NCBI GenBank assembly: GCA_003141835.1
Contig: PLNR01000002.1
Coordinates: forward strand, 14,026 to 78,025
From: Candidatus Omnitrophota bacterium
Lineage (GTDB): Bacteria; Omnitrophota; Gorgyraeia; Pluralincolimonadales; Pluralincolimonadaceae
Reading direction: 5' to 3'
Length of the DNA stretch: 64,000 nt
Shown here: one piece after another, positions 7,516-34,915 of the stretch
Numbering within the stretch: the first letter of the stretch is position 1
Layout of the letters: every line of letters starts with the position of its first letter
The notes under the pieces: generated by a model
Database searches by the model: none
What the model saw: the letters and a program-made list of their open reading frames with translations, nothing else
What the model was told of the DNA's origin: nothing
Position numbers and translations under genes: made by a program

Positions 7516-8185
7516 CTATATCCGACCACTTCTTCATGCCTTCGATCCAACCTTTTATCCTGCATTGAAGACGTGTATCGGAAATCACTATCTTAAATGT
7601 TCCTAGCGGCAGTGTATCTCTTTTGTTTTTGCTTGCCCTGCTGACGGCTAGATGCGCTTTATGAAATTGGTCTAAAGGTATGCCGCTGATTTGTGACCAA
7701 AATTTTTCGGCTTTTTCTTTATTTAAGTGCGGATGGATATGAACTCCACCGCGAAATTTAGCATCGTTTACTTTACAGATATCTTTAAAAAATTTCATCA
7801 TCAAGCGCACCATATGCGGGTCTGAATTAGTGAAAATTACCGTATTATTTCCTGCTTTCGACCCTTCTCCCCAATATAGCGCGCTGCCGACCGCTTTTAA
7901 GAGAGTATTCGAACATTCCGATGGGATTTCCTTGGTCGCGGAATTTTTAATATCTTTCCGGATTTTTCCCCACTTTTGCTTGGGGCTATTCGGGTGGTTC
8001 GCCGCAACTGCTCTTCCCTTATCCTGGTTCGATTTAAGCTTAGCTATCTGATCTTCGGTAAGGGGGATATCTTCAATCCACCTGCTGACAGCACCTTTCG
8101 AGCATTTGACGCGTTTCGTTATGGCTCGAAGCGACCAACCTTGCCTGCGAAGCTCTCTTGCAAGCTTTCTTTCTTCTGCTTTCAT
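7493..8185 (-). CDS. HTH-domain protein with LAGLIDADG-like motif (ALYWGEGSK); possible homing-endonuclease-like or DNA-binding protein
   Basis: N-terminal helix-turn-helix (LARELRRQGWSLRAITKRVKCSKGAVSRWI). The motif LLKAVGSALYWGEGSKAGNNTVIFTNSD resembles a LAGLIDADG block. The 3' end overlaps tRNA-Val by 23 nt. Confidence 0.4.
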   Translation of the reverse strand: MKAEERKLARELRRQGWSLRAITKRVKCSKGAVSRWIEDIPLTEDQIAKLKSNQDKGRAVAANHPNSPKQKWGKIRKDIKNSATKEIPSECSNTLLKAVGSALYWGEGSKAGNNTVIFTNSDPHMVRLMMKFFKDICKVNDAKFRGGVHIHPHLNKEKAEKFWSQISGIPLDQFHKAHLAVSRASKNKRDTLPLGTFKIVISDTRLQCRIKGWIEGMKKWSDIGALGSAG

Positions 8186-8343
8186 TAGCGAACCTCAATG
8201 TTTTGAACTAATTACCAACATTACACCGGTTCGCTATTGTCAAGGAGCTATCCGTCTGGAAAGCCAAGCGGTGAGTGTATAAATTACCATAATTCCCAGG
8301 GGGTGTCAACCCCGCACTTTTGACAAAGTGCGGGACTTCGGCG

Positions 8344-9480: not shown

Positions 9481-10007
9481 TTCGAATGCTGCAGGTATAT
9501 CTTGCGGATCTCGTTAAAGATGTCGACGTATTCCTTCGTCTGGTAATCGCGGTACGTCCATTCCCACGGCTGGAACGACCTGTCGATGAAGCGGAGGGTT
9601 ATCTCGGCGAAGACGCCTCCGTAGAGGTATACCCTGTGCGCGTTGTCCTTGGTCGTGGCGAGGATAAGTTTCGCGTCGGTGATGTATCCGGGGTCGATGT
9701 TTATCCTGCGCGACGGCTTGCCGCGCTCCCTGCTCTTCCCCAGCTCAAGCTTGTTCGTGTAATGTTTTATCTTCGGCAGGACCTCGGGATTGACGAGTTT
9801 CCTGAAGGAAATGAACTGCCTCTTCAAATTCTGCCCCATCTCAGGCGCGTAATAATCCGTATACGCGAAATCCAGCAATGAGGTCCTGAAATCTATCTTC
9901 CCGAATTTCCACTCCAGTGTCTTCTCCATCTTCATTATCAGGTCCGGGTCGTTCGATATCATCCCGATGATGAGCTTGACCGGCTTATGCTGCTTTGCTA
10001 CTCCCAT
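9477..10007 (-). CDS. conserved hypothetical protein (possibly DUF4416-like)
   Basis: 176-aa ORF overlapping the M48 start, with a GGAGG RBS. There are no recognisable catalytic motifs. The family assignment is from memory only. Confidence 0.4.
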   Translation of the reverse strand: MGVAKQHKPVKLIIGMISNDPDLIMKMEKTLEWKFGKIDFRTSLLDFAYTDYYAPEMGQNLKRQFISFRKLVNPEVLPKIKHYTNKLELGKSRERGKPSRRINIDPGYITDAKLILATTKDNAHRVYLYGGVFAEITLRFIDRSFQPWEWTYRDYQTKEYVDIFNEIRKIYLQHSK

Positions 10008-13051: not shown

Positions 13052-13714
13052 TTATTTTAACATTATCACCGAGAGCATCCTCCCGGCCTTTTCTTTTTCT
13101 TTCCTGAATGAGAAGAATTCGCCGTTCCTGCAGGCGGTGCATATCCCGCAGTCGAAAATATTTTTCGCGCTTATGCCGGCAGCTATAAGCTGCATGGCAT
13201 TCTCACCTACCAGGTCAAAATAATGCTTATGCGCCATTTTAACAACCGAATCGGGAAAATGCACCAAAAATTCGCTGTTCACTTCGTAACAGCACTGCCT
13301 GAGCGCCGGCCCCATCCCGACAAGCAGCCTTGACGGGGCTGACTTGTAATTCGCCTTCATCGCTTCGACGACGTTATTGGATATCCTCTCCTTCGTGCTC
13401 TTCCATCCCGCGTGTGCGATGCCACAGCAATGGTGCTCGGGGTCGTAGAAGAGTATCGGCAGGCAATCCGCCGTCCTGACGGACAACGCTATCCCTTTCA
13501 CGTTCGTTATCGCCCCGTCGGCCCCGGCGATCTCCCCTGACAAGTCGGTCTTTGCGTCTATCTTCACGACCTTCCCGCCGTGCACCTGTTCAAGGCGCGC
13601 GAGTCCCTCGGGGACGATCCCCAGCCTCTTGAGGAAATCCCCATGGCTTATCTTCCGGTCGGAGATGCCGTGCAAGACAGGAAAATTTTCCAGTTCCTTA
13701 AGCGCTATTATCAT
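13052..13714 (-). CDS. pgeF: PgeF/YfiH family (laccase-domain, purine nucleoside phosphorylase-like) protein
   Basis: VRTADCLPILFYDP...CCGIAHAGW...GPALRQCCYEV motifs of DUF152/YfiH. Confidence 0.75.
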   Translation of the reverse strand: MIIALKELENFPVLHGISDRKISHGDFLKRLGIVPEGLARLEQVHGGKVVKIDAKTDLSGEIAGADGAITNVKGIALSVRTADCLPILFYDPEHHCCGIAHAGWKSTKERISNNVVEAMKANYKSAPSRLLVGMGPALRQCCYEVNSEFLVHFPDSVVKMAHKHYFDLVGENAMQLIAAGISAKNIFDCGICTACRNGEFFSFRKEKEKAGRMLSVIMLK

Positions 13715-15672
13715 CAGAACGGCAGTCCCACGTCGAACATGAATCTCGGCACCTGGCTCTCCTTGTTCGTATTAAGCGGATAGGCGAGGTCGAAGCGCAG
13801 GACGGTCCATTTCGTCCTGAAGCGGATCCCGCCGCCGATGGAATTCTGGAGCTCGGCCGGGAAGCGCACTTTGTTAAAGCTTCTCCAATCCCCGCCCACA
13901 TCATAAAATATTGCGCCGTTGAACCATCTGTATATTGGGAACCTCATCTCCGCGTTGCCCAGCAGCATCACCGTGCCCCACAACGGCCTGTTGTCAGCGT
14001 CCTTGGGCCCTATTGAGTTGACTTTATACCCGCGCACCGTATCTATGCCTCCCAGCATGAACCTTTCGAAGAACGGGACGTCTTTCGCTTCGCCGTACGT
14101 GTCCATCCATCCGCCCATGCCCCTGAGCGCGAAAGTTATCTTCGGGTAAGGCAGGGTGAAATACCATCTCCCCTCGCCTGTGGCCCTCATGAAATTATAA
14201 TCGCCTCCGAGGCCCTTCGCTGCGACGCCGAAGCCGGCGTGGTAATACGAGCCGTCCGTAGGGTAGAGCTTATCGTCAAATGTATTCCTCTCCCAATGGA
14301 AAGAGAGCGTCGATACGCTGCTTTTGCCTTTGTTGAGCTGGAATTCCTGGGGAGCCGAAACAGGCACCTCATCGACATTCACGGCCTCGTATGTATATTT
14401 TAGGAACCCGTGGGTATGCTCGGTAATGCGGCCCCCGAATATGATGTCCCCGCCGGCATCGCGCATGCGGTGGCGGTCATCCTCGGATGCGCGCCAGAGC
14501 GCCTCGGCCCCGCCGAAATATCCCGTGCCGAGAAGGTCTTCCCTGATGACGCCTGCGCTGATGTCCCTGTACCTGTTGTTAGTGCCGACCTTTATCTTGT
14601 AGTTTGTCTCATTGCCGATGTATTTCCCCGCGTCTATCGAAAAATTCGATACCGGGGATTCGGGATAGTACGACGGCCCGATCCTTTTGGCTTTTTCCCT
14701 GTCTACCAGCTCGGCGTAAAAGAATTGGAATGTCTTTATTTTAGCGTAGCCCATCGTGAAGAGCGAAGTGAAATGGCCCGACGGTATCCAGATTATCTCC
14801 GGTTTGTTAAGCGCCTGCCACAACTGGTCGGTGCTCTCGCGCGGGATCGCGGTATCGAAATACGCGTTCACCATCAGGACGGGCTTTCCCTTGCACCTGT
14901 CCGCGAAAGCCAGCGGGTCTATTATCCATAACCTCTTCTCCAGTTCCTGCTCTGAAGCTATTCCTTCCTCTTCCAGGCATTTCTTGAAAGTCTTTGTCGT
15001 GAAGCTGTTCCATACTATCTTGCCCATATTGCCGCCGCCGAGGATTATGGCCATCGAGCACGGCCTTTGGTCCACCCCTGTGACGATCGGCACCATTATC
15101 CCGCCCAGGCTCAGGCCCATTATGCCGATCTTGTCCTTTTCCACTTTGGGTTGCGCCTCAAGCCAGTCTATCCCGCGCCGCGCCTCGATGACTATCTGCC
15201 GGAATAGCTGGACTATCGCGTCCGAGCCGCATTGTTTGATATTCGCGTCGAGCCATTCGCGGCTGAATTTATAATCCTTCTGATACGCGGTCTGGACCAG
15301 CAATACCGCTATGCCGTTGGAGGCGAGGTCGCGGCAAAAATCCCCTTCGATCTGCGGCACTCCCCCGGCTATATGGCTCAGGAATATTACCGCCGGATAT
15401 TTTTCCTTGCCCTTCGGCTCATAAAAATCCAGGTATACCGTATTGTTAGGGTAATCGGTCTGCAGGGCCGAGGGATAACTGAAAGAGTAATGCTCGTATT
15501 CGCCGGTCTTCTCTTTCGATTCGAGCGTGCAAACAGGTACGCCTTTTGGATAATCGTAGAATTTGGCCGGATCAGCCTCTTCTCCGCGTGCCGGGGTGGA
15601 AAAAACCGGGCTCCCGGTGAAAAACATCACGAGAAAGAACGCGAACCGCCATTTCATCTTTTTTTCATCCAC
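13714..15672 (-). CDS. secreted alpha/beta-hydrolase (GLSLGG) fused to C-terminal Omp85/BamA-type (Bac_surface_Ag) beta-barrel
   Basis: Signal peptide. Dienelactone-hydrolase/esterase-like N-terminal half with GxSxG. The C-terminus has ERFMLGGIDTVRGY, GAIFYDVGG, GGGIRFRT..LRFDLAYPL and a terminal F, as in Omp85 barrels. Confidence 0.7.
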   Translation of the reverse strand: MDEKKMKWRFAFFLVMFFTGSPVFSTPARGEEADPAKFYDYPKGVPVCTLESKEKTGEYEHYSFSYPSALQTDYPNNTVYLDFYEPKGKEKYPAVIFLSHIAGGVPQIEGDFCRDLASNGIAVLLVQTAYQKDYKFSREWLDANIKQCGSDAIVQLFRQIVIEARRGIDWLEAQPKVEKDKIGIMGLSLGGIMVPIVTGVDQRPCSMAIILGGGNMGKIVWNSFTTKTFKKCLEEEGIASEQELEKRLWIIDPLAFADRCKGKPVLMVNAYFDTAIPRESTDQLWQALNKPEIIWIPSGHFTSLFTMGYAKIKTFQFFYAELVDREKAKRIGPSYYPESPVSNFSIDAGKYIGNETNYKIKVGTNNRYRDISAGVIREDLLGTGYFGGAEALWRASEDDRHRMRDAGGDIIFGGRITEHTHGFLKYTYEAVNVDEVPVSAPQEFQLNKGKSSVSTLSFHWERNTFDDKLYPTDGSYYHAGFGVAAKGLGGDYNFMRATGEGRWYFTLPYPKITFALRGMGGWMDTYGEAKDVPFFERFMLGGIDTVRGYKVNSIGPKDADNRPLWGTVMLLGNAEMRFPIYRWFNGAIFYDVGGDWRSFNKVRFPAELQNSIGGGIRFRTKWTVLRFDLAYPLNTNKESQVPRFMFDVGLPF

Positions 15673-16448
15673 TTACTGTCTTTTGAGGCGCCCCATTTAG
15701 TACTTTCATTCCGGTCCGGCGCGGCCTCCTTCGTCTCCGACGGCATATCGCCCAGGACCGGCGTGACAAGCGTCGCGGCTATATCGTAGCTGTTGCCCTT
15801 CGGGGTCTTGGTCAGCACGATCAGCTTCTTCCCCCAGTATTCGCGGAGCGGCATAATTATCCTGCCGTTCGGCAGGAGTTGGTTGACCGCCTGCTGCGGC
15901 GCGAAATCTATCGGATTGGTTATAACGATGACATCATAAGGCGCGAATTCCGCCCACCCGGCATCTATCCTGCCGGTCTTTACCTTTATGTTCTTATAAC
16001 CGAGCGCCTTAAGCCTTTCTTCGGCCTGCAGGGCGACCCCTTGCGACGGCTCGACGCAATATACTTCCTTGGAGAGTTCCGCCAGGACAGCGGCCTGGTA
16101 ACCGGATTCTACGCCCAATTCCAGGACCCTCTCTCCCCCTTTAAGCCCGGCCAGTTGGGCGACCAGCGAGACGAAATACGCCGGCGGGACCGCCTCGTCT
16201 CCGCCTATGGGCAGCGATATGTCATCGTAGGCGTATTGCCTCATGCCTTCCGGGACGAACTGGTGCCGCTCTATCCTGCCTATGACATCGAGGATCTTTT
16301 TGTCCTTGATACCGCGCGCTGCGACCTGGGAATCGACCATCATCTGCCGTTGGCGGGCATAATCGGTCCCTTCCGCGGCGCAAACGGAGGACGATACCAG
16401 AAAAACAGAAAGGAAGAACGCGCAGGGCCTTGGCAAACTCATCTTCAC
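15654..16448 (-). CDS. pcm: protein-L-isoaspartate O-methyltransferase with predicted signal peptide
   Basis: VLELGVESGYQAAVLAEL (AdoMet motif I) and AYDDISLPIGGDEAV, in the PCMT family. The N-terminus MKMSLPRPCAFFLSVFLVSSSVCAA is signal-like. Confidence 0.8.
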   Translation of the reverse strand: MKMSLPRPCAFFLSVFLVSSSVCAAEGTDYARQRQMMVDSQVAARGIKDKKILDVIGRIERHQFVPEGMRQYAYDDISLPIGGDEAVPPAYFVSLVAQLAGLKGGERVLELGVESGYQAAVLAELSKEVYCVEPSQGVALQAEERLKALGYKNIKVKTGRIDAGWAEFAPYDVIVITNPIDFAPQQAVNQLLPNGRIIMPLREYWGKKLIVLTKTPKGNSYDIAATLVTPVLGDMPSETKEAAPDRNESTKWGASKDSKWMKKR

Positions 16449-17272
16449 GCCCTCTTGGCTATCCAGTCGAGGATGTAATCCGTTATCTCATGCCTCTTCG
16501 TCTCGCGCAATAACTCGTGATAGAGGCCGTCGTACAATTTGATCTCTTTGTCCGCGAAAGTAACTTTTTGAAAAAATTCTTTTGCCCCGGAAGGCGCCAC
16601 GACTTTATCGTCCGTGCCTTGCAGCAACAGGAGCGGCACTTTTACCGCCGCCGCGTTCTCGAGGACATACGCCGAGGCCCTTTTCGATTCACTGAAGAGC
16701 CTGAAAGATATCACCCTCTGGGAGTGCTTGTCGTCCTTCGTCTTGCTGATCAGCTCCCTGTCATGCGAGAGGTATTCGAAAGGCACGTGGTTCGGCGTCG
16801 TGATCTTAGGGCACAAAAATGACAATATCTCGGCTATGCCGGTCACTATACCGCTGGGCGGGCTTGCGAAACGCAGCGCCGGCGCGCAGACGGCCGTGCC
16901 TTTTATCATGCCGCCGTACTTTAAGGAAAAAAGCAGCGAGGTCAACCCTCCCATGCTGAGTCCCACGATAAAGGCCTCATCGCATAATGATCCTATCTTG
17001 GCTATCTCGACAAATTGGCGCAGGTCTTCCACGAAATCGTCGAAGGCGTCGACATGGCACCTGGGGCCGTCGGAGTGGCCGTGTCCGCGCTGGTCATGCG
17101 CGAAGAAAGCCATCCCTCTCTTGAAAATATCGTCGCCGAAATGGCTGTATTTTGCAGAATGTTCCCCGAGCCCGTGGACGAGGATCACGGCGGCCTTCGG
17201 TTTTTCCGGGATGAACGCCCTGTAGAATATGTTTTGGGCGTCTTTATTCTTGAACGAACCTTCCGTCTTCAT
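16445..17272 (-). CDS. alpha/beta hydrolase (lysophospholipase / monoacylglycerol-lipase-like)
   Basis: HGLGEHS...GHGHSDG...VGLSMGG nucleophile elbow; the C-terminal histidine region is consistent. Confidence 0.7.
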   Translation of the reverse strand: MKTEGSFKNKDAQNIFYRAFIPEKPKAAVILVHGLGEHSAKYSHFGDDIFKRGMAFFAHDQRGHGHSDGPRCHVDAFDDFVEDLRQFVEIAKIGSLCDEAFIVGLSMGGLTSLLFSLKYGGMIKGTAVCAPALRFASPPSGIVTGIAEILSFLCPKITTPNHVPFEYLSHDRELISKTKDDKHSQRVISFRLFSESKRASAYVLENAAAVKVPLLLLQGTDDKVVAPSGAKEFFQKVTFADKEIKLYDGLYHELLRETKRHEITDYILDWIAKRA

Positions 17273-17281: not shown

Positions 17282-19078
17282 TTAAGATTGGTACATCCCG
17301 TCGAAAATGCTCTTGTACTTCTCCGCGACGACCTTACGCTTGACCTTCAACGTCGGCGTTATCTCGCCGCCCTCTATCGTCAGCTTATTTTCCAGCAGGG
17401 TGAACTTCTTGATCTTCTCGTAACTGGACAGGTCCTTCTGCCTTTGCTCTATCCTCTCAGTGATGAATTCCAGCACGCGCGGATGCCTGACCAGCTCCTC
17501 GGGCTTTATATACGGTATGCCCTGCCTCATCGCCAGGCCTTTAAGCGCGTCGAAGTTCGGGACTATGAGGGCTGTCAGGTAAGGCCTCCTGTCGCCGTGC
17601 AGGATGACTTCGAGTATATAGGAATCGGCCTTGATAAGGTTCTCTATGTTCTGCGGCGCGATATTCTTGCCGCCGGCGGTTATTATGATATCCTTCTTGC
17701 GGTCGGTAATATAGAGGAACCCTTCCTCGTCGAGATAACCGATATCCCCGGTGCGGAACCGCCCGTCGGCGTCAAAGGCCTCTTTTGTCGCGTCCTCTTT
17801 TCTGTAATATTCCTTCATCACGCCGGGGCCGCTGACAAGTATCTCCCCATCCGGGGCTATCACGACCTCTGTATTATGGATGGGCTTGCCTACCGAACCG
17901 AACTTGAACGCCTTAAAAGTATTGACGGTGACGACCGGTGAGGTCTCGGTCAGGCCGTATCCCTCGAATATGAGTATGCCGACGGAATAGAAAAATTCCC
18001 CGAGTTCTTTCGAAAGCGGCGCGCCGCCGGATATGAAAAATTTTATCCTGCCTCCGACAGCGTTCCTGAGTTTCGATAAGATGAAGGCCTTCATCAATTG
18101 GTACCTGAGCCAGATGACCGGCCCGACGTCGAGCTTGTTCAGCCTGGCATCGGCATATCTTTTTGCCAGCGTGACGGACCTTTCCAGGATCTTTTTCTTG
18201 ATTTCGGAGCTGTGCGCTATCGAATCCGTTATTGTCTCCTGCATCTTTTCGTAAAACCGCGGTACGGCGCAGGCGTAAGTCGGCCTTATCTCCTTGAGGT
18301 CCTGCGCCACGGATTCGATGCTGTCCGCATAGGCGATCGTCCCGCCGATAAACATCGTAAAATAATAACTGGCCATCCTCTCGAAGACGTGCGAAAGCGG
18401 AAGGAACGAGAGGCATGTGTCGTCTTCCCCGAGAGGCAGCAGGTCGACCGAAGACCTGCAGTTAGAAAGGAAATTGTCGTGCGTCAGGCATACGCCCTTC
18501 GCAGGGCCGGTCGTGCCTGACGTGTAGATTATCGAGGCTAGATCATCCTTGCCCGCGGAATTGAGCCGCGATTCGAATTCGGCCCTTGTCTCCGCGGCTT
18601 TATCCGCTCCGGTTTTCAGGACAGATTCGAATGAAATGACATCGGCGCCTTTTATCTTCCCGGGCGGGTCCATGATTATTATCTTCCTTAACGCCGGAAG
18701 TTTCGGTTTTATCGAGATTATTTTGTCCAGCTGCTCCTGCGTCGAGACTATCACCATCGCGGAACCGGAATCCTGGAGGATATATTCCATCTGGTGCGGG
18801 ACGTCGGTGGGATAAAGCGGGACATCGGCGCATCCTAAGGAAAGGACGGCGAGGTCTGAATAGGCCCATTCAGGGCGGTTCTCCGAAAGCAGGCCGACCC
18901 TCTCTCCCGGCTTAAGCCCGAGCGATATAAGCCCGGAAGCGAGGTCTTTTACCCTGCCTTCGGCCTCGGCCCAGCTTATGTCGCGATATTTTCCTCCGGA
19001 CTTAGCCCTGAGGGCGCACTTTCCGCCGTACTTGTTCGCCCTTGAGAAAAACATTAAAGGAACAGTCTCTTCGCGCAT
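17282..19078 (-). CDS. long-chain fatty-acid--CoA ligase (AMP-binding enzyme)
   Basis: YTSGTTGPAKGV AMP-binding motif. About 600 aa, with ...GYGLTETSP... and a C-terminal GEITPTLKVKR. Confidence 0.85.
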   Translation of the reverse strand: MREETVPLMFFSRANKYGGKCALRAKSGGKYRDISWAEAEGRVKDLASGLISLGLKPGERVGLLSENRPEWAYSDLAVLSLGCADVPLYPTDVPHQMEYILQDSGSAMVIVSTQEQLDKIISIKPKLPALRKIIIMDPPGKIKGADVISFESVLKTGADKAAETRAEFESRLNSAGKDDLASIIYTSGTTGPAKGVCLTHDNFLSNCRSSVDLLPLGEDDTCLSFLPLSHVFERMASYYFTMFIGGTIAYADSIESVAQDLKEIRPTYACAVPRFYEKMQETITDSIAHSSEIKKKILERSVTLAKRYADARLNKLDVGPVIWLRYQLMKAFILSKLRNAVGGRIKFFISGGAPLSKELGEFFYSVGILIFEGYGLTETSPVVTVNTFKAFKFGSVGKPIHNTEVVIAPDGEILVSGPGVMKEYYRKEDATKEAFDADGRFRTGDIGYLDEEGFLYITDRKKDIIITAGGKNIAPQNIENLIKADSYILEVILHGDRRPYLTALIVPNFDALKGLAMRQGIPYIKPEELVRHPRVLEFITERIEQRQKDLSSYEKIKKFTLLENKLTIEGGEITPTLKVKRKVVAEKYKSIFDGMYQS

Positions 19079-19090: not shown

Positions 19091-20401
19091 CTAGAACATC
19101 ACTTTGCGCGCGCGATTCATCCCGATAGCCAGCTTGAGGAGATTCACCCTCTTGAGGCCCTTCCCTATCACAGCCATCCTCGACTTGCCTTTCGGCGTCT
19201 CGGATACGGTGAAGAAGTCCTCGGCCAGTTCCACCAGCAGCTCCGGATATTCCTTGAAAAATTCGGGATGCTTCGTCGCGAAATTTGAAATGCCCTTGTA
19301 ACGCTTCAGGTCCTTGAATACGAAAGAATTTTCCAGGCGCTCGCGGTATCCCGCAAGCCCTTTCTCGGAGAAATCGTTATTCTTCTTCGCATCTATTATC
19401 GCCTCGGCCGCGTACAGGCCCGACGCCATCGCCAGGTTGGAACCCTCATGGAACATCGGGTTCATGTTGACGAAACCGGCCGCGTCGCCGGCGATCAAAA
19501 GCCCGTCCATCGTGAGCTTCGGGAGATGGTCGTAACCGAACTCCGGTATCAAATGCGCCGCATATTCCAGGAGCTTGCCGCCTTTTACCAGGCGCCTTAT
19601 CGACGGGTGTTCCTTGAAATTCTCGATGAGGTCGTTCGGCGTCAATTTGTTGTATTTGAGGTCCCTGGTCGAGACGCCGATGCCGACGGAGAGCGTATCC
19701 TTATTGGTATAGATAAAGGCTGAGCCGACCATCCCCTTTACCGAGCCCCCGAAATATTCCAGCGAGACGCCTTCTTCGCCTTCGAGGTTGAACCTCTCCT
19801 CGATGACTTCCTTCGGCAGCGAGATCACTTCCTTGCAGCAGGTGACCATATGCTCCGGGACGTGCCTTTCCCTTAATCCAAGCCTTTCGGACAGGAGCGA
19901 ACCGACCCCTTCCGCTATGACGATAGTGTCCGCGAAGAGGTCCCCGTCCTCGAGGCGCGTCTTTACCCCGACCGCCTTTTTGCCTTCGGTGATCACCTTA
20001 TCCACGACAGCCTGGTTCAATACCATTACGCCCGCTTCTTCCGCCTTCTTGGCGTACCAGGCGTCGAATTTCCCGCGCAGGACCGTGAAAGTGTTATTGA
20101 ACGGCGGTTTATTGAAACCTTCGAACCTCATGCCCATCTGCAATTCCGAATCGGCGGACAATACGGAAAATACTTTTTTCACGACGCGCCGTTCCACAGG
20201 CGCCTCTTCCCAGAAATTCGGTATGACCTTATTGAGTATCGTCGAATATAATATCCCGCCCATCACGTTCTTCGAGCCGGGCGCTTCCCCGCGCTCGAGC
20301 AATACGACGCTCAGGCCCGCCTTCGCCAGCGTATACGCGCACGTCGTCCCTGCCGGGCCGGCGCCCACTACAATACAATCGAACTTCTCGCCGCTTGCCA
20401 T
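19091..20401 (-). CDS. fixC: FixC-family FAD-dependent oxidoreductase (ETF-quinone oxidoreductase-like)
   Basis: FDCIVVGAGPAGTTCAYTLAKAG...SKNVMGG...VLRGKFDAW...IAGDAAGFVNM. Strong overall resemblance to FixC. Confidence 0.75.
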   Translation of the reverse strand: MASGEKFDCIVVGAGPAGTTCAYTLAKAGLSVVLLERGEAPGSKNVMGGILYSTILNKVIPNFWEEAPVERRVVKKVFSVLSADSELQMGMRFEGFNKPPFNNTFTVLRGKFDAWYAKKAEEAGVMVLNQAVVDKVITEGKKAVGVKTRLEDGDLFADTIVIAEGVGSLLSERLGLRERHVPEHMVTCCKEVISLPKEVIEERFNLEGEEGVSLEYFGGSVKGMVGSAFIYTNKDTLSVGIGVSTRDLKYNKLTPNDLIENFKEHPSIRRLVKGGKLLEYAAHLIPEFGYDHLPKLTMDGLLIAGDAAGFVNMNPMFHEGSNLAMASGLYAAEAIIDAKKNNDFSEKGLAGYRERLENSFVFKDLKRYKGISNFATKHPEFFKEYPELLVELAEDFFTVSETPKGKSRMAVIGKGLKRVNLLKLAIGMNRARKVMF

Positions 20402-20425: not shown

Positions 20426-22531
20426 TTATTCCTCTATCAATGCCTTTATCTGCGGGAGCATCCTCTCGGTTTCCTGCTCCCCGCGCCTTATCAGCGCCTC
20501 TACCTTATACAATTCGAACCACGCCGCGTTCGGCAGGACCGGGTGTATGACGCAATCCGCGTCCTTGGACGAGGCCTCGGCGAATACATACTGCATCGCC
20601 AGCGAGGTGCTCATTATCACGTCGAATACGTTAGGCGCGAATGTCCGGCGGGCCCATCTGCGGAATTTATAGGCGAGCCGCGAAAATACCGTGCGCTGCG
20701 ACAGCCTTATCTCTTCGCTCCTTCGCATCTCCTCGAATTCCTTGAAAGCCTTCATCATCTCTTCCTGGCTGGGCAGGCAATTTACGGCTATTATCTTCTT
20801 TGCGCCGTATTTCGCCAGGACGTCTATCGGGACAGGGTCGAGGGTGCCGCCGTCTATGAGGAAGTCATCCCCGTATCTTACGGGTTTTATAAATGCCGGG
20901 ATAGAACATGAAGCCCTGAGCGCGTCGACAAGGCTGCCCTCCTCAAGAATTATGTTCTCGCGGGAACGGAGCGTATTCGCGACGATCTTTAGCGGTATAT
21001 GCGTATCGTGGAATGTTTTCCTGCCGAGGTATTCGCGGAAAAACCTCTTGAAGTTATTACCGTTCATGAAGCCGCGCAGCGGCAGGAGCGAGAAATCCGC
21101 CAGCGAAAAGACCACGTCTTTCCTCTTGAACCTTAGCGCTATCTTTTCGAGCTCCTCGGCCTCTATTCCGGTCACCCAGAAAGCGGCGACGACAGCGCCG
21201 ATCGACGTGCCGGCGATAAAATCTATCGGAATCTTCTCCCTCTCAAGGACCTTCAGCACGCCGATATGCACCAGCCCGAGGGCCGCTCCTGAGCCGAGCG
21301 CGAGGCCGACGAGGATCTTCCCGATCTCGCGGGCGATCCTCCTTACCGACCTCGAATAGAGGCTCTCCGGTACGGCCAATACCGGCGGCAATCCCGCGGA
21401 CATCATCCCGGCCAATAACCCCAGGTCCGGCAGGACCGCGTAAGCCTTGTGGCCCAGCAATTTGACCTCTTCTTCGAAAGTATCGGTCTGCACGAATTCG
21501 TTTATTATCGCCTTGACCGTGTTGTCGGGATCCGGCACCACTTTTTTGAGTTCGTTGATCAGTTTACCGGTGGCTTTCAGGTTATGCGCATTGCAGTCGC
21601 TGACGACATGTATGAGGTCGGACTGCGCGAGAAGCGAATAGGTCGGTTTGTCTATCTCCGGCGGCATGTCGACAACGATATAATTGAACTCCGACGCCAG
21701 GGAACTCAGGAATGAGATGATGTGCGCGGGTTCGATCTTGCTGTGGTCGTCGCAGCCCAGGTTAAGCAGGTATATGCCCCCGGCTTCGTATTTCGTTATG
21801 AGGGGCTTGGCCTCTTCGTAATTCATGCTGTGGCGCTTCAGGTCGATGCATTTGAGCTCTCCCATCTGCAGCATCGCGGAACATTCGTTCCCTGAGTGGC
21901 TCATATCGAGGAGTATGACCTTCTTGCGCGTCTCGTAGGAGAGCGCTATCGCAAGGTTGACCGCGTACATCGTCCGCCCGGATTTCTTGGCGAGCCCGAA
22001 GACGGATATTATCGAGGACTCGAAGATCGTCCTCTGTTTCGACTGTTCCTTCTGCAGGCGGCGCGAGAGGGCCTCGGTGAGCTTCAAGGCAAGCTGCGGC
22101 ACTTCCTTGAGCAGGCTATCGAAATTCTTTTTGTCTATGCGGAGGATAAGCGAATCGTTTATTATGCGGACAGATGCGGAATGCGGCTCGTTGGTAAGAA
22201 GCGAGATTATGCCTACGTAATCGCCGCGGTGCAGGTGGACAAGCGTCTTCTCTTCCCCGGACGGCGTCCTGACGAATACCTTCGCCCTGCCGGTTATCAT
22301 GCAATAAAAAGAATCTCCCTTCGCGCCTTCGCGGTAGAGGATATGGTTCTTCCTATATTCGGCCACGTAGGAATTATCCTCTATCAGCTTTTGGGCCGCG
22401 CCGGGGAGGCCCGAGAAGATAGGTATCCTTCTTATTATAGACGCTTTATCGATGCTTGGGTTGGCAGGGTTCATCCCTTGTATTATATAGACTTGGGATG
22501 AAAAAGTCAAAAAAAACGCCAACGGCTCCAA
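20426..22531 (-). CDS. tri-domain protein: cyclic-nucleotide-binding domain + ParA/MinD-like domain with degenerate Walker A + patatin-like phospholipase
   Basis: cNMP-binding beta-barrel (GDSFYCMITGRAKV...GDYVGIISLL). Middle domain VFGLAKKSGRTMYAVNLAIAL in place of KGGVGKT. C-terminus has GLALGSGAALGLVHIGVL (Gly-rich), GTSIGA (GxSxG) and DGG. The true start is probably MNPANPSID (~22474). Confidence 0.7.
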   Translation of the reverse strand: MEPLAFFLTFSSQVYIIQGMNPANPSIDKASIIRRIPIFSGLPGAAQKLIEDNSYVAEYRKNHILYREGAKGDSFYCMITGRAKVFVRTPSGEEKTLVHLHRGDYVGIISLLTNEPHSASVRIINDSLILRIDKKNFDSLLKEVPQLALKLTEALSRRLQKEQSKQRTIFESSIISVFGLAKKSGRTMYAVNLAIALSYETRKKVILLDMSHSGNECSAMLQMGELKCIDLKRHSMNYEEAKPLITKYEAGGIYLLNLGCDDHSKIEPAHIISFLSSLASEFNYIVVDMPPEIDKPTYSLLAQSDLIHVVSDCNAHNLKATGKLINELKKVVPDPDNTVKAIINEFVQTDTFEEEVKLLGHKAYAVLPDLGLLAGMMSAGLPPVLAVPESLYSRSVRRIAREIGKILVGLALGSGAALGLVHIGVLKVLEREKIPIDFIAGTSIGAVVAAFWVTGIEAEELEKIALRFKRKDVVFSLADFSLLPLRGFMNGNNFKRFFREYLGRKTFHDTHIPLKIVANTLRSRENIILEEGSLVDALRASCSIPAFIKPVRYGDDFLIDGGTLDPVPIDVLAKYGAKKIIAVNCLPSQEEMMKAFKEFEEMRRSEEIRLSQRTVFSRLAYKFRRWARRTFAPNVFDVIMSTSLAMQYVFAEASSKDADCVIHPVLPNAAWFELYKVEALIRRGEQETERMLPQIKALIEE

Positions 22532-22864
22532 ACCATTTCACTGCTGCTTGCTGCGGTGCTGCCGCTTGTTTCTCGGATCCAACTAGCCGTTGGCAATCAT
22601 TATCAGTTGACCGATAAGGGGGCAACCTACGCCTTTGACCTTTTCTCCAGTTTCGGCAACCTGTCGGCCTTGTCCCATGACCTCGGGATTTAGGCTTGAG
22701 GTTTTGCGTCCCGCCCTTTCGGTGCCGACTGATGCGGCATCAGTGTGCTTTGGCTTATTCACACTGAGCGGCTTTGCCCTCTTCGGTCGATTGAAGTATG
22801 CCATATTCCGGGTAAAATACAAGGGGCAAAATTACGCATGGATAGCGCCGATGCGCTACCATTG

Positions 22865-23761
22865 TTACGCATAGCCGAGCATTTTCAGCGCATTCGGGTC
22901 CTTGCGCCAGTTCTCATGGACCTTGACCCACAGCTCGATGTAGGCGTGGCGGTTCAGGAATTTCTGGATGTCCCTTCTCGCGGATTCGCCGATGGATTTC
23001 AGCATCTGGCCCCTATGGCCGACCAGTATCTTCTTCTGCGAATGGCGCTCGACGTATATCACCGCCCTTATATAGACAAGTTTCTTCGGGCGGTCGGTAA
23101 ATTCCTCTATAAGCACAGCCAGGGAATGCGGCACCTCCTCATGCGTCAGCTCGAGGGCCTTCTCGCGGATCATTTCTGCGACCATGAACTTTTCGGTCTT
23201 GTCGGTAAATTGGCTGTCGGGGAAATGCTTCGGCCCTTCGGGAAGGTACTCGATGACCTTCTTAAGCAGGGCGTCCATGTTGTCGCCGTTTGACGCGGAC
23301 GTCGGTATTATATCCCTGAAAGCGTAGAGCCTGGCCCCCTCTTCGATAAGCGGCAGGGCGAGCGACTTGCTCCTTAGGTCTATCTTGTTTATCAATAATA
23401 TGGCCGGCTTGTTCGCGGCCTTCACCAGGTTGAATATCAGCATGTCTTCGTGGGTTATGCCTTTTGTCACGTCCAGGACGAACACGATAAGGTCCACTTC
23501 AAGCAGGACGTCCTTCGCGACCTGGGTTATCTGTTTCCCGAGCAGGTTCTTGGGCTTATGTATCCCGGGCGTGTCGACGAATACCACCTGGGCGTCGTCG
23601 CGCGTCAGGATGCCCTGGATCTTGTTGCGGGTGGTCTCGGGTTTTTGCGTCACGATGGCGACCTTCTCGCCGACAAGGCGGTTGAGGACCGTCGACTTGC
23701 CGACGTTCGGCCTGCCTATTATCGCCACAAACCCGGATTTGAATGTTTTTTTATCCGCCAT
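22865..23761 (-). CDS. era: GTPase Era
   Basis: GFVAIIGRPNVGKSTVLN (G1), DTPG (G3), NKID (G4), and a C-terminal KH domain. Confidence 0.9.
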   Translation of the reverse strand: MADKKTFKSGFVAIIGRPNVGKSTVLNRLVGEKVAIVTQKPETTRNKIQGILTRDDAQVVFVDTPGIHKPKNLLGKQITQVAKDVLLEVDLIVFVLDVTKGITHEDMLIFNLVKAANKPAILLINKIDLRSKSLALPLIEEGARLYAFRDIIPTSASNGDNMDALLKKVIEYLPEGPKHFPDSQFTDKTEKFMVAEMIREKALELTHEEVPHSLAVLIEEFTDRPKKLVYIRAVIYVERHSQKKILVGHRGQMLKSIGESARRDIQKFLNRHAYIELWVKVHENWRKDPNALKMLGYA

Positions 23762-31798: not shown

Positions 31799-32476
31799 TT
31801 ATGGGTTCCGTTGCTCATCTCTAATAAACCTCCTTTTTAAAAGATATACCGCAACCCAACCAAAAACAACCGCCGATATGATCTGCGCCGAGTCGAGGCC
31901 AAAATAACCGCCCGTAGCGTCGGCGCGGAAAAACTCTATCCAGAACCTGAAGAACGTGTACGCCAGCAAGAAAATCCTGAATAAATCCCCTTCCGTTTTA
32001 ATGCCTGCCCGGATAGACCACAGGTAAAGAAAAAGTCCGAAACAAAACGCCGACTCAATCAACTGCGTCGGAAGGCCGTTTATCCCGTAGCAGCAGCCGT
32101 TAAAATAACAGCCTATCCTCCCTATCGCGATGCCAATAGCCAGGGCCGGGGCAAAGAGGTCACCTGTCGAACGGGTAAACTTAATTATCCTCTTGGTTAT
32201 CACTACTCCGAGATAACCGCCTATCAAGCCGCCGACAAGCGTCTTCCCGCCGATCTGGGGTATGAAAATATGGGACAGGTGCTTGGAAAAATAATCCCAA
32301 TACACAAAAAATACCGAACCCAGCTTGCTGCCTATCAACCCGCCGACAAGCGCCCCGAAGAAGATATAAAGGAGCGGCTCGAGGGATACCTTCTTCCGCC
32401 TTATCTCAAGAAAATACAGGCACAGTCCTGTCGCATACGCTATCGCGCTGAATAAACTATACGCCGGTAGATGCAT
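31799..32476 (-). CDS. Lgt-family (prolipoprotein diacylglyceryl transferase-like) membrane protein
   Basis: LAIGIAIGRIGCYFNGCCYG resembles the Lgt GRIGNFINGELWG signature but with Cys substitutions. 225 aa, polytopic. Confidence 0.5.
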   Translation of the reverse strand: MHLPAYSLFSAIAYATGLCLYFLEIRRKKVSLEPLLYIFFGALVGGLIGSKLGSVFFVYWDYFSKHLSHIFIPQIGGKTLVGGLIGGYLGVVITKRIIKFTRSTGDLFAPALAIGIAIGRIGCYFNGCCYGINGLPTQLIESAFCFGLFLYLWSIRAGIKTEGDLFRIFLLAYTFFRFWIEFFRADATGGYFGLDSAQIISAVVFGWVAVYLLKRRFIRDEQRNP

Positions 32477-34175
32477 CGCCTGTCAGCTCCTTGACCGCAT
32501 TCCTCTTTATCTTCCTCGTCGACGTCTTCGGCAGCTCGTCGAAATAAAGCATAAAATCCGGGATCTTCTTGTATTCGGCCAGGTCGTTACCCAGGCGGCT
32601 GAGTTCCGCCCCGATTTTTTTCTTAATAAGCTCTTTGTCCTTCTTCTCTTCCCCTTCAAACCGCTCGAGGTTTGGGACTATCACTGCAAACACTTCCTCA
32701 GTCCCGGCCTTAAGCCCCTCGGTCGCCTTCTTGCCGAGCACGCAGATCTCTTTAATGTACGGGCTGGCCGACATCACCTCTTCTATCTCCTCGGGAAAAA
32801 CCTTCTTGCCCCCGCCGAGGACTATCAGGTTCCTGATGCGGCCGGTAATATACAAAAACCCGTCTTTATCAAGCCTCCCGATGTCGCCCGTGTGCAGCCA
32901 CCCGTTTTTTATCATTTCGGACGTCTTCCCGGGATTTTTGTAGTATCCTTTCATGATGTGGTCACCGCGGGTCACTATCTCTCCTTCGTCCGTGGAAAAA
33001 GTCCCGTCCGGTTTCATGAGTTTTACTTCCACTCCGGGCAGCGGTTTGCCGACCGAGCCGTATTTGAGTTCTTCTAAAGTGTTTACCGTGATGACCGGGG
33101 ACGTCTCCGTGAGCCCGTAACCCTGGAGGATGTTAAATCCCATTGCGTTGAAATCTATCTCTACCGCCGGGTCGAGCGGCGCCCCGCCCGAGACAAAACC
33201 CCTGAGCATTCCCCCGAACTGGTCGTGCACTTTCCGGAAAAATAATTTCCCCGCCTTGATCTTGAACCGGAGCAAAAACCTGCACAGGTGGAGCATCCCG
33301 AAGAAGAGCTGTTTCCCCGGGAACGGCAATGATTGCGCTTTCTTTATTATCCCGCCGTGGAATATCTTCAGCACGAGCGGCACGGTTATCACGACTGTGG
33401 TGCGCGTTTCGTTCATGAGGGCCATGATATTTGCCGGCTTAAGGCTGTCGCAATAAGTGACCGTGGCGCCGACATAAAGCGGGGAAAGGAGCCCGCCGGT
33501 CATCTCGAGCATGTGGTTCAGCGGCAGCATCGAAAGGAAATTGTCCTCCTCGGAATAATGAACGATCCTGTTCAGCTCCTTCGCCTGGAATATGAGGTTT
33601 TTGTAAGTCAGTTCCACGCCTTTAGCTATGCCGGTCGTGCCCGACGTATACACGATAAGCGCGGTGTCCTCGAGGCCGATGGGAAGATATTTTTTATCCC
33701 CGTACCTTATCTTAAGGTCTTTAAGCTTTATTACGTCTTTACGGTCGGCATCATCCAGGAGAAATATGTGTTTTAGGCCGGGCAGTTTAGGTTTAATAGC
33801 GTCTATGACAGGCAGGTGTTTTTCCGAAACAAATATGAATTTTGCGCCGCTGTCGCTTAGTATGAATTCTATCTCCTTCTCGCTTAGTTTCGCGTCCATC
33901 GGCACCACTATCCCGCCGCATGAGATCACCCCAAAAAGCGCGATCGCCCATTCAGGCCTCGACTCCGAAAGTATCGCGGCCCTGTCACTCTTTTCGATCC
34001 CGAGCTTCAAAAGCGTCGACGAGACATCTACCGCCCTCTCGCCGAGCGGTACATACGACAGGCTGTTCCACCCATCCTTGGTCTTTATCTGGAGGGCGGT
34101 CTTCGAGAACCATCTCCTGTTTATGGATTCCATTATTTCATGTATGGAAAGATCTTCGAAATTAGGTCTGGGCAT
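32457..34175 (-). CDS. second long-chain acyl-CoA ligase (AMP-binding enzyme)
   Basis: YTSGTTGIAKGV, GYGLTETSP and a C-terminal PKTSTRKIKR. Confidence 0.85.
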   Translation of the reverse strand: MPRPNFEDLSIHEIMESINRRWFSKTALQIKTKDGWNSLSYVPLGERAVDVSSTLLKLGIEKSDRAAILSESRPEWAIALFGVISCGGIVVPMDAKLSEKEIEFILSDSGAKFIFVSEKHLPVIDAIKPKLPGLKHIFLLDDADRKDVIKLKDLKIRYGDKKYLPIGLEDTALIVYTSGTTGIAKGVELTYKNLIFQAKELNRIVHYSEEDNFLSMLPLNHMLEMTGGLLSPLYVGATVTYCDSLKPANIMALMNETRTTVVITVPLVLKIFHGGIIKKAQSLPFPGKQLFFGMLHLCRFLLRFKIKAGKLFFRKVHDQFGGMLRGFVSGGAPLDPAVEIDFNAMGFNILQGYGLTETSPVITVNTLEELKYGSVGKPLPGVEVKLMKPDGTFSTDEGEIVTRGDHIMKGYYKNPGKTSEMIKNGWLHTGDIGRLDKDGFLYITGRIRNLIVLGGGKKVFPEEIEEVMSASPYIKEICVLGKKATEGLKAGTEEVFAVIVPNLERFEGEEKKDKELIKKKIGAELSRLGNDLAEYKKIPDFMLYFDELPKTSTRKIKRNAVKELTGDASTGV

Positions 34176-34902
34176 CTTCTTTCGCCTCTTTATGCCTGTT
34201 CCTCACCGATTCCGCCGGTATGCCGTAATATATGTCGCGCGGCTCTACTTTAGTCCCTTTTCTCAATACGGCGCTCGCCCCGATTATGGCACTATCCCCG
34301 ATCTCGCATCCCGGCATTATGGTCGAATGGGAGCCTATGGTAACGTTCTTGCCTATCTTCACTTTCCTTAATTTCAATACTCCACGCTCGACGATGTGGC
34401 CGATGATTATCGCCCCTCCCCCGATTACTGTATTGTCCCCGATCTCAAGAAGGGTAGCGTCGAAAACAAATTTCGAATTTATCTGGACATTCTTGCCCAG
34501 TTTTGCGCCGAGCAGCCGCAAAAAAATGTTCGAGAAAGGCGTGAGGAGGATGAAATCTATGAAAGTAAAATTAACGAGAAGGTAGAGCGCGCTGACGAAC
34601 GCCCATTTGAAAGCCTCGGCTGAAAATAGCGGGTAATTGCCTTCCTTTAGCCGGATAAAAAATACCGTGCGGAAAAGCCCGACCAATAAAATAAGCGTCA
34701 ACCCGAAAAGGAAATATCCGCCGGCCAGAGAAAGTCCCAACAGCAAGTATTTGACGGCCAAGGGCATATTCTGGGCGAATGACCAGGTCTTAAAGAACAG
34801 CGCGATCCCGGGAATAAGCGCTAAACCAAAAAAAACAGTGCCTATCAAATACATTACGACTGAACTCAGCAGTTGGACCAATGACACAAACAACCATTTC
34901 AT
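34162..34902 (-). CDS. membrane-anchored hexapeptide-repeat (left-handed beta-helix) acyl/acetyltransferase
   Basis: N-terminal TM helices. C-terminal IGDNTVIGGGAIIIGHIV...IGKNVTIGSHSTIMPGCEIGDSAIIGASAV hexapeptide repeats. Confidence 0.7.
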   Translation of the reverse strand: MKWLFVSLVQLLSSVVMYLIGTVFFGLALIPGIALFFKTWSFAQNMPLAVKYLLLGLSLAGGYFLFGLTLILLVGLFRTVFFIRLKEGNYPLFSAEAFKWAFVSALYLLVNFTFIDFILLTPFSNIFLRLLGAKLGKNVQINSKFVFDATLLEIGDNTVIGGGAIIIGHIVERGVLKLRKVKIGKNVTIGSHSTIMPGCEIGDSAIIGASAVLRKGTKVEPRDIYYGIPAESVRNRHKEAKEDAQT

Positions 34903-34915
34903 AGGCGATCTCCTT

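Follow-up and report, generated by a model that had tools for sequence, protein, structure and literature searches.

NTE-type enzymes deacylate phosphatidylcholine to glycerophosphocholine. NTE/PNPLA6 itself (Swiss cheese) carries a membrane anchor and three cyclic-nucleotide-binding (CNB)-fold domains, the latter N-terminal to a patatin domain of the RssA/NTE type, and has no MinD/ParA fold; RssA/YchK has no regulatory domains at all. A lipase built on a related plan is encoded in a 64,000-nucleotide stretch of contig PLNR01000002.1 (positions 14,026 to 78,025 of the forward strand, assembly GCA_003141835.1; the whole stretch is called the window below) from a Candidatus Omnitrophota bacterium, a member of a widespread and uncultured phylum. 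Like NTE, it places a CNB fold ahead of an RssA/NTE-type patatin domain; unlike NTE, it has a single CNB domain, of a histidine type, and a probable pseudo-ATPase as an insert between the two. The reading favoured here, at a probability of roughly 0.6, is that this three-domain lipase is a regulated acyl-hydrolase of the phospholipase A/lysophospholipase type and would open a pathway for the breakdown of glycerophospholipids and fatty acids whose operon is typical of Omnitrophota.

An earlier note, made from the letters of the stretch alone, had proposed the fusion of a cyclic mononucleotide (cNMP)-binding domain, a MinD/ParA-like domain and a patatin. This architecture holds up in profile searches, where all three Pfam domains score above their curated cut-offs: cNMP_binding (PF00027) at residues 58-143 with 78.1 bits against a gathering threshold (GA) of 27.5, AAA_31 at residues 184-332 with 36.7 bits against 27 (CbiA/ParA match more weakly), and Patatin (PF01734) at residues 410-572 with 123.2 bits against 27.7. 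These three ranges follow the 701-residue numbering of the longest reading frame; all other residue numbers refer to the 682-residue protein.

The patatin domain keeps its catalytic motifs. Among 194 distinct family sequences, the set behind all residue counts given here, the glycine, serine and glycine of the nucleophile elbow G422-T-S424-I-G426 are each unchanged in 194, as are D541-G542 of the DGG motif and both G390 and G396 of the glycine-rich oxyanion loop, G390-LAL-GSG-AALG. The intact patatin chemistry claimed from the motifs GTSIG and DGG is thus borne out across the family, and since the glycine-rich loop, Ser424 and Asp541 are all invariant, the enzyme is almost certainly active, by prediction, as a lipid acyl-hydrolase. 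The C-terminal 295 residues span positions 3-297 of the 301 in the NCBIfam RssA model, at 131.7 bits where the equivalog cut-off is 272, so membership in that equivalog failed. A basic helical insertion lies at about residues 570-636. An AlphaFold2 single-chain model built from 103 sequences (predicted local distance difference score, pLDDT, 86.2; predicted template-modelling score, pTM, 0.84) places the patatin domain on PlpD (5fya) in a Foldseek search, with a template-modelling (TM) score of 0.86 and 29% identity. By every sequence test applied the protein is a patatin-family member, to be described as a regulated patatin lipase, and it fails the functional motifs of both its CNB fold and its MinD fold. 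It is taken to be cytoplasmic because neither a signal peptide nor a membrane segment is visible by eye, nor is a hydrophobic N-terminus.

The three-domain arrangement is widely shared in the phylum. More than 120 full-length relatives, at 38-91% identity, came out of a word-indexed search, and those with a name are all Omnitrophota/Omnitrophica except one labelled Thermoproteota; the closest, at 89-91%, come from Omnitrophota metagenome-assembled genomes. When one genome was scanned for each species, 301 of them proved to contain a relative. The label is Omnitrophota/Omnitrophica for most of the 80 best loci and Eisenbacteria for one, and some third-party assemblies carry the unconfirmed label 'uncultured Planctomycetia', from the same PVC group. 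The family appears to be conserved phylum-wide in Omnitrophota and apparently vertically inherited. The literature searched, on Omnitrophota with patatin or beta-oxidation and on YchK, contained no description of such a lipase, and lipids, phospholipases and beta-oxidation go unmentioned in the phylum-level Omnitrophota genome papers searched by keyword.

What the lipase stands next to gives the first indication of its role. In the window the genes that follow it lie on the same strand, spaced by 9-25 nucleotides (nt) or overlapping, and begin with a FixC-type flavoprotein, a fatty-acid-CoA ligase and a Hydrolase_4 alpha/beta hydrolase (Table 1). The FixC gene lies downstream and era upstream, as the earlier note had them, but FixC is no unrelated neighbour: it belongs to a conserved lipid and fatty-acid catabolic operon. 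A census of same-strand genes within 9 kb, taken over the 55 loci with at least 4 kb of downstream sequence, found at least two lipid-catabolic genes behind the lipase in 42 of them. Counted gene by gene, an acyl-CoA synthetase/ligase (ACS) occurs at 37 loci, Hydrolase_4 at 30, 3-hydroxyacyl-CoA dehydrogenase (3HCDH) at 29, enoyl-CoA hydratase (ECH) at 29, thiolase at 17, FixC at 10 and acyl-CoA dehydrogenase (ACAD) at 5. The order in Candidatus Omnitrophus fodinae (L062) is lipase-thiolase-3HCDH-ECH-ACS-Hydrolase_4, and in a relative of 41% identity (L003) lipase-3HCDH-ECH-ligase-Hydrolase_4. The fullest version shown here, in a relative of 63% identity (L016, 12077-20749), runs lipase-thiolase-3HCDH-ECH-ACAD, then the subunits of the electron-transfer flavoprotein (ETF; EtfBA), FixC and ACS. 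Because FixC there follows thiolase, 3HCDH, ECH, ACAD and ETF, the FixC of the window is read as the last part of a beta-oxidation/ETF block, the rest of which the window's sub-clade has lost or moved, and its FixC-ACS-hydrolase trio as a trimmed version of the conserved operon.

The likely substrate is suggested from the other side of the gene. A glycerophosphodiester phosphodiesterase (GDPD) is encoded directly upstream of the lipase in L076 (9246-9974), L084 (4354-5106) and L086 (9234-9995), with Pfam scores of 150-174 bits, and homologues of 33-35% identity hold the same place in L048, L062 and L081. GDPD works on the head-group product that is left after both acyl chains have been removed, and the fact that its gene adjoins that of the lipase points to glycerophospholipids as the substrate. 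The clusters of L084 and L086 additionally contain HIT and PilZ genes, a second Hydrolase_4 gene and a SAM hydroxide adenosyltransferase.

Is the lipase, then, switched by a cyclic nucleotide? The CNB domain finds PKG, PKA-R, Epac and CRP as its sequence matches in the Protein Data Bank (PDB), and in the structural model it superposes on the CNB domains of CRP and PKA-R with TM scores of 0.7-0.78. The arginine of the phosphate-binding cassette contacts the cyclic phosphate in cNMP binders, and the glutamate contacts the ribose 2'-OH. When the cassette of the family, G88-x-x-S91-L-L-T94-x-x-P-H98-S99, is aligned to the ...GE..L....PR[ST]A of PKG and PKA, His98 falls on the phosphate arginine and Ile89 on the ribose glutamate. 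No arginine stands at this position in any of the 194 sequences, all of which have His98; the glutamate is kept in only 34, most having Ile, Met, Thr or Val. Gly88 is present in 194 and Ser91 in 193, and Thr94 and Ser99 are also extremely conserved. The term "nucleotide sensor" used by the earlier note was in this respect an assumption: to judge from the cassette, the pocket is under strong selection yet is not a canonical cNMP pocket, and its ligand is possibly not a cyclic mononucleotide. Invariant Arg63 was considered as a stand-in for the missing arginine and dropped, since an alignment with E. coli CRP presumably matches it to Ser46, a residue outside the pocket.

These data bear directly on the proposal that the protein is a canonical lipase activated by cAMP or cGMP (or cCMP or cUMP), with its cyclase encoded elsewhere and CNB binding as the main switch. 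The PF00027 score, the fact that the best solved relatives are true cNMP binders, the 34 sequences that retain the glutamate and the extreme conservation of Gly88, Ser91, Thr94, His98 and Ser99, which implies a real ligand, all speak for it. However, the residue that should hold the cyclic phosphate is a histidine throughout, the glutamate has given way in most relatives and in the window, no cyclase is a neighbour of the gene, either in the window or at those related loci that were inspected, and the comparative signal described below concerns cyclic di-GMP (c-di-GMP) and not a cNMP. A canonical cNMP switch is for these reasons considered unlikely.

The middle domain has a similar history of a kept fold and a lost signature. 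Searched alone, its 236 residues match ParA, Soj and MinD chains of the PDB at E = 1.6e-6 to 1e-3, the match to archaeal MinD 1g3q spanning the full length of the domain, and the predicted structure superposes on ParA 3ea0 and MinD 1hyq with TM scores of 0.77-0.81. The region is therefore a match to the P-loop ParA/MinD families, as had been supposed, and the Walker A replacement by GLAKKSGRT, from which a non-catalytic domain had been proposed, is also as described: the string aligns to the xKGGxGKT of Soj and ParA with an arginine at the P-loop lysine. Across the family the pattern is [S/G]-x-x-[K/R/P]-[G/K/E]-x-G-[R]-T, so that the deviant Walker A signature xKGGxGK[ST] is absent from the 194 sequences as a rule, with its signature lysine position variable and its Gly-Gly lost. 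Residue 167, at the P-loop lysine, is Arg in 138, Lys in 21, Cys in 10 and another residue in 25; the Walker B aspartate D269 is kept in 184. A catalytic residue would hardly vary between R, K, C, Q, T and V, as the lysine position does, if selection acted on catalysis, and the best reading of the domain is a pseudo-ATPase, predicted to be non-catalytic.

The nearest outgroup of the middle domain has a comparable layout. A HMMER search with the middle domain against 1.8 billion representative proteins, which gives the nearest outgroup architecture only, produced 940 matches at E <= 1e-3 and 61 at E <= 1e-10. Outside the family, the strongest matches (E = 1e-12 to 1e-8) belong to proteins some 400 residues long whose MinD domain starts near residue 130-150, and Pfam and NCBIfam describe them as receiver-domain plus MinD/ParA-type ATPases resembling CpaE/TadZ. 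These too have a sensor domain of some 130-150 residues before the MinD fold, and the N-terminal two-thirds of the lipase looks like a sensor-plus-MinD module in which a CNB fold has replaced the receiver and to which a lipase is attached. The CpaE/TadZ-like proteins keep the KGG core, as do those of NCBIfam NF047398 ('KGGVGR-motif variant AAA ATPase'), a model that shows a Lys-to-Arg Walker A to be known in the superfamily; the lipase family has lost the signature lysine and both glycines, and the three-domain lipase does not match NF047398.

The start of the gene matters for what lies upstream of it. The minus strand is a single unbroken open reading frame (ORF) from 22531 to 20426, 701 residues long if read from the TTG at 22531. 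However, TTG 22531 is probably not the start codon. Most full-length relatives measure 676-689 residues and align from the MNPAN that begins at ATG 22474, and the 19 extra codons of the TTG version hold a near-consensus promoter; ATG 22474 is for both reasons the most likely true start, which gives a predicted protein of 682 residues. The gap to era is then 390 nt (22475-22864) and not the 330 nt given by the earlier note, and it is more than the non-coding gap described there.

The DNA of this gap is conserved among relatives, and it contains a c-di-GMP-I (GEMM-I) riboswitch aptamer followed by a terminator. A gathering-mode Rfam scan of the whole window reported two tRNAs only and missed the aptamer, which appeared in a permissive, E-value-based scan of the gap as a full-length match to RF01051 at 22759-22652, on the strand of the lipase (31.8 bits, E = 2e-4). 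At the same position the scores pass the GA in eleven related loci, among them, for RF01051, L014 (56.6), L016 (53.9), L046 (40.4) and L017 (35.6), and, for the 'GGC' variant RF03167, L024 (74.3), L032 (71.1), L029 (71.0), L003 (66.9) and L035 (61.4); sub-threshold matches occupy it in L007, L020 and L010. The low score of the window copy is attributed to an insertion in P2, which splits off the true 5' strand, GAGGGCAAAGCCGCUC (about 22782-22766), and to three unpaired positions in the middle of P3. A custom covariance model was built from nine related aptamers with the window excluded (alignment A4, with a hand-written structure; a 16-aptamer MAFFT alignment, A3, was set aside for misplacing the 5' strand in copies with the P2 insertion). 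It recovers the window copy at full length, 22794-22648, with 43.5 bits and E = 1.9e-9 in 1.27 Mb, and places an aptamer directly upstream of the lipase gene in 20 of 84 sources. In an alignment that, being fitted to the model, leans towards the structure, 90.6% of cells are paired against at most 53% when the partners are slid, 15 of 20 pairs show compensatory double changes, and none of 500 shuffles reaches the observed value.

The nucleotides that would contact the ligand are also in place. G20, A47 and C92 have known roles in ligand specificity, and G20A gives cGAMP binding (PMC7288161). In the window they align to 22778, 22705 and 22656, and all three show the c-di-GMP identities there and in the relatives. 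On these comparisons the aptamer is a divergent member of the c-di-GMP-I class and a predicted c-di-GMP binder. The consensus of RF03167 has G47, yet the Omnitrophota aptamers that score best on that model carry A47: those of L003, L024, L029, L032 and L035 read GACGCAAA against a consensus of GACGCGAA, a variant scaffold with the canonical c-di-GMP contact nucleotide.

Behind the aptamer comes the putative expression platform, in the window an 11-bp stem followed by U8 (Table 1) and in relatives a compact hairpin at the same place, GGCAAGCG-TTATCA-CGCTTGCC with a T-run. Complementarity between the 3' strand of the aptamer and the terminator arms, through which an alternative pairing might set an ON or OFF logic, amounts to 5-6 bp in the L017 group and is not clear in the window. 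Ahead of the aptamer, TGGCAT recurs about 25-30 nt upstream in L003, L032, L035 and L046, with TGGTAG in L024, and this recurring motif defines the candidate riboswitch promoter of the window, for which a consensus promoter scan gave no match at 22795..22822. A sigma-54 reading of TGGCAT was rejected for wrong spacing to any TTGC-like element; an extended -10 fits better.

A second c-di-GMP receptor turns up in other branches of the family. In the clade of 35-38% identity a single-domain PilZ ORF of about 120 residues ends 9-52 nt upstream of the lipase on the same strand. It is immediately upstream at 13 loci (L043, L045, L047, L053, L054, L055, L058, L060, L065, L069, L071, L080 and L082), and a related PilZ lies 1.7-2.6 kb upstream at six more (L036, L066, L075, L076, L084 and L086). 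All seven adjacent proteins that were tested match PF07238 (38-51 bits against a cut-off of 22.5), as do two of the more distant ones, and the motifs RxxxR (RRRSVR) and (D/N)xSxxG (NISxxG) are intact. The window has no such PilZ ORF. Riboswitch-bearing and PilZ-adjacent loci do not overlap and together make up about 39 of the 84 sources, several of the remaining loci having too little upstream sequence to judge. That two unrelated sensors, one an RNA and the other a protein, take this one place in separate lineages argues strongly, by comparison, for control of the lipase operon or the enzyme by c-di-GMP. The nucleotide link would accordingly be c-di-GMP at the level of the operon, through riboswitch or PilZ, and not a neighbouring cyclase. 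A regular-expression scan of the window's ORFs for GGDEF, a crude test, found no match.

The same riboswitch class is found once more downstream of the operon, at seven loci of which five are PilZ-adjacent (Table 1). There it mostly abuts or nears the start codon of a protein of 530-650 residues whose N-terminus resembles a signal peptide, a placement suggestive of a translational switch; L036 has no more than a small ORF at this place, and in L058 the sequence ends before any downstream gene. Two further neighbours were seen in passing. L075 has a stand-alone receiver-domain protein (9545-9970) in place of PilZ directly upstream of the lipase, and L003 a PilZ gene (15602-16105) between two M48 peptidase genes, 5.5 kb downstream.

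Several observations weigh against a c-di-GMP-linked catabolic operon, in part or as a whole. Thirteen of the 55 census loci have no lipid genes downstream, and neither the window operon nor the whole 64 kb contains thiolase, 3HCDH, ECH, ACAD or ETF. About half of the loci have neither riboswitch nor PilZ in the available sequence. The window aptamer stays under the RF01051 gathering score of 35 bits; it is the most divergent of the set, with its P2 insertion of about 50 nt and its three mid-P3 mismatches, and may be decaying. A strong promoter sits between the terminator and the ATG, and the riboswitch may not be the main control of the lipase gene.

The missing beta-oxidation core would suit a different role for the enzyme, that of an NTE/RssA-like lysophospholipase which remodels or detoxifies the cell's own lipids in membrane homeostasis, its neighbours recycling the fatty acids. 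For re-acylation an acyl-CoA ligase might be enough by itself, the alignment of the patatin half with RssA extends from one end to the other, some relatives bear the JGI label 'NTE family protein', and the glycerophosphocholine made by NTE fits a GDPD neighbour. Against this, complete beta-oxidation and ETF/FixC sets are co-linear with the lipase in many lineages, a degradative and not a recycling arrangement, and the RssA equivalog cut-off is missed. Lipid homeostasis is accordingly given a low probability, and a catabolic operon remains the preferred reading.

The promoter raises a separate difficulty, which concerns the window's riboswitch and not the operon. There are 7 nt between the end of its -10 and the lipase ATG, and the promoter overlaps the U-tract of the terminator. 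TATAAT or TGnTATCAT/TATGAT precedes the ATG by 7-9 nt throughout the two clades, whether or not a riboswitch is present, and the proximal promoter keeps its position in L007-L017, L021-L035 and L063. The closeness of -10 and ATG predicts a leaderless lipase mRNA from this promoter. The riboswitch-like element of the window might then be a relic or a stand-alone, c-di-GMP-binding small RNA, with the operon driven from the proximal promoter. Besides the low score, P2 insertion and P3 mismatches of the window aptamer, the immediate succession of terminator and TTGACT-17-TATAAT and the same promoter in relatives that lack a riboswitch favour this idea. However, the order aptamer-terminator-gene is kept across two protein clades of about 40% identity, G20, A47 and C92 are intact in the window, and in a third clade the corresponding place is taken by the PilZ gene, which speaks for a functional c-di-GMP link and not chance synteny. 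A relic or free-standing RNA is possible, if doubtful. The riboswitch may also contribute transcripts by read-through, disturb the working of the proximal promoter or give rise to a small RNA of its own.

A nucleotide-gated patatin also recalls the abortive-infection effectors of CBASS and Pycsar, in which an activated patatin would destroy the membrane. Weak PADLOC matches exist (the CNB domain to Pycsar TIR effectors at 9e-12, the patatin domain to CBASS phospholipases at 6e-8), Foldseek finds CapE, and the NCBIfam model CBASS_lipase matches at E = 5e-4. These matches are partial, confined to single domains and far below cut-off (19.4 against 200 bits for CBASS_lipase), and no CD-NTase or Pycsar cyclase lies near the window gene, where the earlier note had also seen none, or in L001, L003 and L005. 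Defence genes are usually sporadic and located in islands. This family is phylum-wide and sits in a stable metabolic operon next to era. With no cyclase neighbour and no full-length match to a defence model, CBASS/Pycsar membership was rejected as extremely improbable, in line with the preference of the earlier note for a housekeeping signalling lipase. Of that note's interpretation the architecture, the non-catalytic look of the MinD/ParA domain, the patatin chemistry and the housekeeping role are supported; the nucleotide sensor was assumed, and the membership of FixC in the operon and the contents of the gap were missed.

How would such an enzyme work? In the proposed scheme the patatin domain would strip acyl chains from phospholipids or lysophospholipids and free fatty acids, the Hydrolase_4 enzyme would take off the remaining chain, and GDPD, in lineages that have it, would cleave the head-group diester. 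The ligase would activate the fatty acids for beta-oxidation, whose electrons would pass through ETF and FixC. The CNB domain would bind a small molecule, and the pseudo-ATPase domain could be a rigid scaffold, or a dimerisation or docking module, that couples the CNB sensor to the lipase; in PilZ-bearing lineages it may couple PilZ and c-di-GMP as well. In the lineage of the window c-di-GMP would set transcription through the aptamer-terminator unit upstream. A bolder and rather unlikely extension is a two-layer second-messenger switch for lipolysis in Omnitrophota, of a kind not described before. Here c-di-GMP would act by a GEMM-I riboswitch or, in other lineages, by a dedicated single-domain PilZ protein docked on the pseudo-ParA domain, a His-type CNB domain with an orphan ligand other than a cNMP would gate the patatin through the same scaffold, and the pair would trigger use of the cell's own or a host's membrane phospholipids at a change of life stage.

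Table 1. Coordinates of the features discussed (window positions, except in the last row, which gives positions in each related locus).
Feature	Position	Strand	Remarks
Three-domain lipase coding sequence	20426..22474	minus	682 residues from ATG 22474; stop codon 20426-20428
CNB-fold sensor domain	22043..22447	minus	residues 10-144, including the C-terminal long helix; Pfam, PDB and fold matches, secondary structure of the model
Non-canonical phosphate-binding cassette GIISLLTNEPHS	22178..22213	minus	residues 88-99; His98 at 22181-22183
MinD/ParA-fold domain, probably pseudo-ATPase	21320..22027	minus	residues 150-385; AAA_31, PDB and Foldseek matches
Degenerate Walker A GLAKKSGRT	21971..21997	minus	residues 160-168; aligned to Soj/ParA
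RssA/PlpD-type patatin acyl-hydrolase domain	20429..21319	minus	residues 386-682; PF01734, RssA and PlpD matches
Catalytic Ser424, motif GTSIG	21203..21205	minus	194/194 relatives; codon checked
Catalytic Asp541, motif DGG	20852..20854	minus	194/194 relatives; codon checked
c-di-GMP-I (GEMM-I) riboswitch aptamer	22648..22794	minus	RF01051 below GA; custom model 43.5 bits
Terminator-like hairpin of expression platform	22509..22595	minus	UGCCAACGGCU ... AGCCGUUGGCG then U8; minimum-free-energy and centroid fold
Candidate riboswitch promoter, -35 TTGTAT, TGG, -10 CATACT	22795..22822	minus	from recurring motif
Near-consensus sigma-70 promoter TTGACT-17-TATAAT	22482..22510	minus	11/12 match
era	22865-23761		upstream neighbour of lipase gene
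FixC-type (ETF-quinone-oxidoreductase-like) flavoprotein	19091..20401	minus	25 nt downstream of lipase; Pfam DAO and ETFQO_UQ-bd; NCBIfam FixC-type 358 bits
Long-chain-type fatty-acid-CoA ligase	17282..19078	minus	AMP-binding 275 bits; best NCBIfam FadD11/long-chain ligases
Hydrolase_4 alpha/beta hydrolase (lysophospholipase/monoacylglycerol-lipase-like)	16445..17272	minus	PF12146 232.7 bits; best NCBIfam lysophospholipase L2
Two tRNA genes	7348-7423 and 7442-7515	minus	only Rfam gathering-mode matches in window
Downstream riboswitches of relatives	L036 17586-17671; L043 11525-11628; L045 12127-12226; L050 5818-5924; L058 10846-10942; L069 19630-19724; L071 15900-16003		

Elsewhere in the window three regions deserve mention. 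Lying on the lipase strand five genes further downstream, 13714-15672 (minus) is kept in the window's clade and encodes a protein of 652 residues with a signal-peptide-like start, a DLH-like alpha/beta-hydrolase domain and a C-terminal Omp85 barrel; it resembles the type Vd autotransporters (PlpD) with a different passenger of lipase/esterase type. At 32457-38469 (minus) a second acyl-CoA ligase, a paralogue 33% identical to that of the operon, is accompanied by a membrane-like ORF of 246 residues, an alpha/beta-hydrolase-like ORF of 247 and an ORF of 937, which may be another lipid-related cluster. Finally, a stretch of low GC content at about 4000-8200 (35-39% against about 53%), with several short ORFs and adjoining the two tRNA genes, may be an integrated element.

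According to one proposal (PMC10066038), Omnitrophota are ultra-small and depend on a host. A phylum-typical operon led by a regulated phospholipase makes membrane lipids a testable candidate for their carbon and energy source, and if the two-layer switch were true, ultra-small and possibly host-dependent bacteria would turn on the consumption of membrane phospholipids by a second messenger. The literature searched yielded no case of lipid catabolism under c-di-GMP control, nor any tie of GEMM-I or c-di-GMP-I-GGC riboswitches to a patatin or a lipid-catabolic operon; the class is a known one in a new genetic context. The case also illustrates that a real but divergent riboswitch can escape an Rfam scan at gathering threshold. 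For biochemistry the locus poses two questions: which ligand fits a CNB pocket that has an invariant histidine for the phosphate-clamping arginine, and what role is left to a MinD/ParA fold once its P-loop has decayed?

Set beside the described systems, the lipase shares a part with each. In concept it is nearest to NTE and to CapV/CapE, as a patatin lipase that seems to be under a second messenger, yet it belongs with neither. The glycerophosphodiester product of NTE fits the GDPD gene of six lipase loci, which adds a likeness of pathway to that of domain order. Structurally, the patatin domain is matched best by PlpD of Pseudomonas aeruginosa (type Vd); that protein, however, is secreted, as a passenger attached to a POTRA/Omp85 barrel, and the lipase has no barrel and no visible signal peptide. 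Arginine-less cassettes on a CNB fold are also found in the PKA regulatory subunits of trypanosomatids, which bind nucleosides. One of them, the cAMP-independent PKA-R of T. brucei (6h4g), is among the fold matches, and the kinship goes no further than the fold. The aptamer has the P1, P1b, P2 with GAAA loop and P3 of GEMM-I riboswitches and, like them, lies 5' of a same-strand gene and is followed by a terminator; it differs from the class in the large P2 insertion and in the strong promoter behind it. CapV and CapE of CBASS are likewise patatin lipases under a nucleotide second messenger, CapE superposing with a TM score of about 0.6. They bind their dinucleotide directly, without a CNB or MinD-like domain, and stand beside a CD-NTase in defence operons, whereas the dinucleotide link of the Omnitrophota lipase would be an RNA aptamer or a PilZ gene in a catabolic context.

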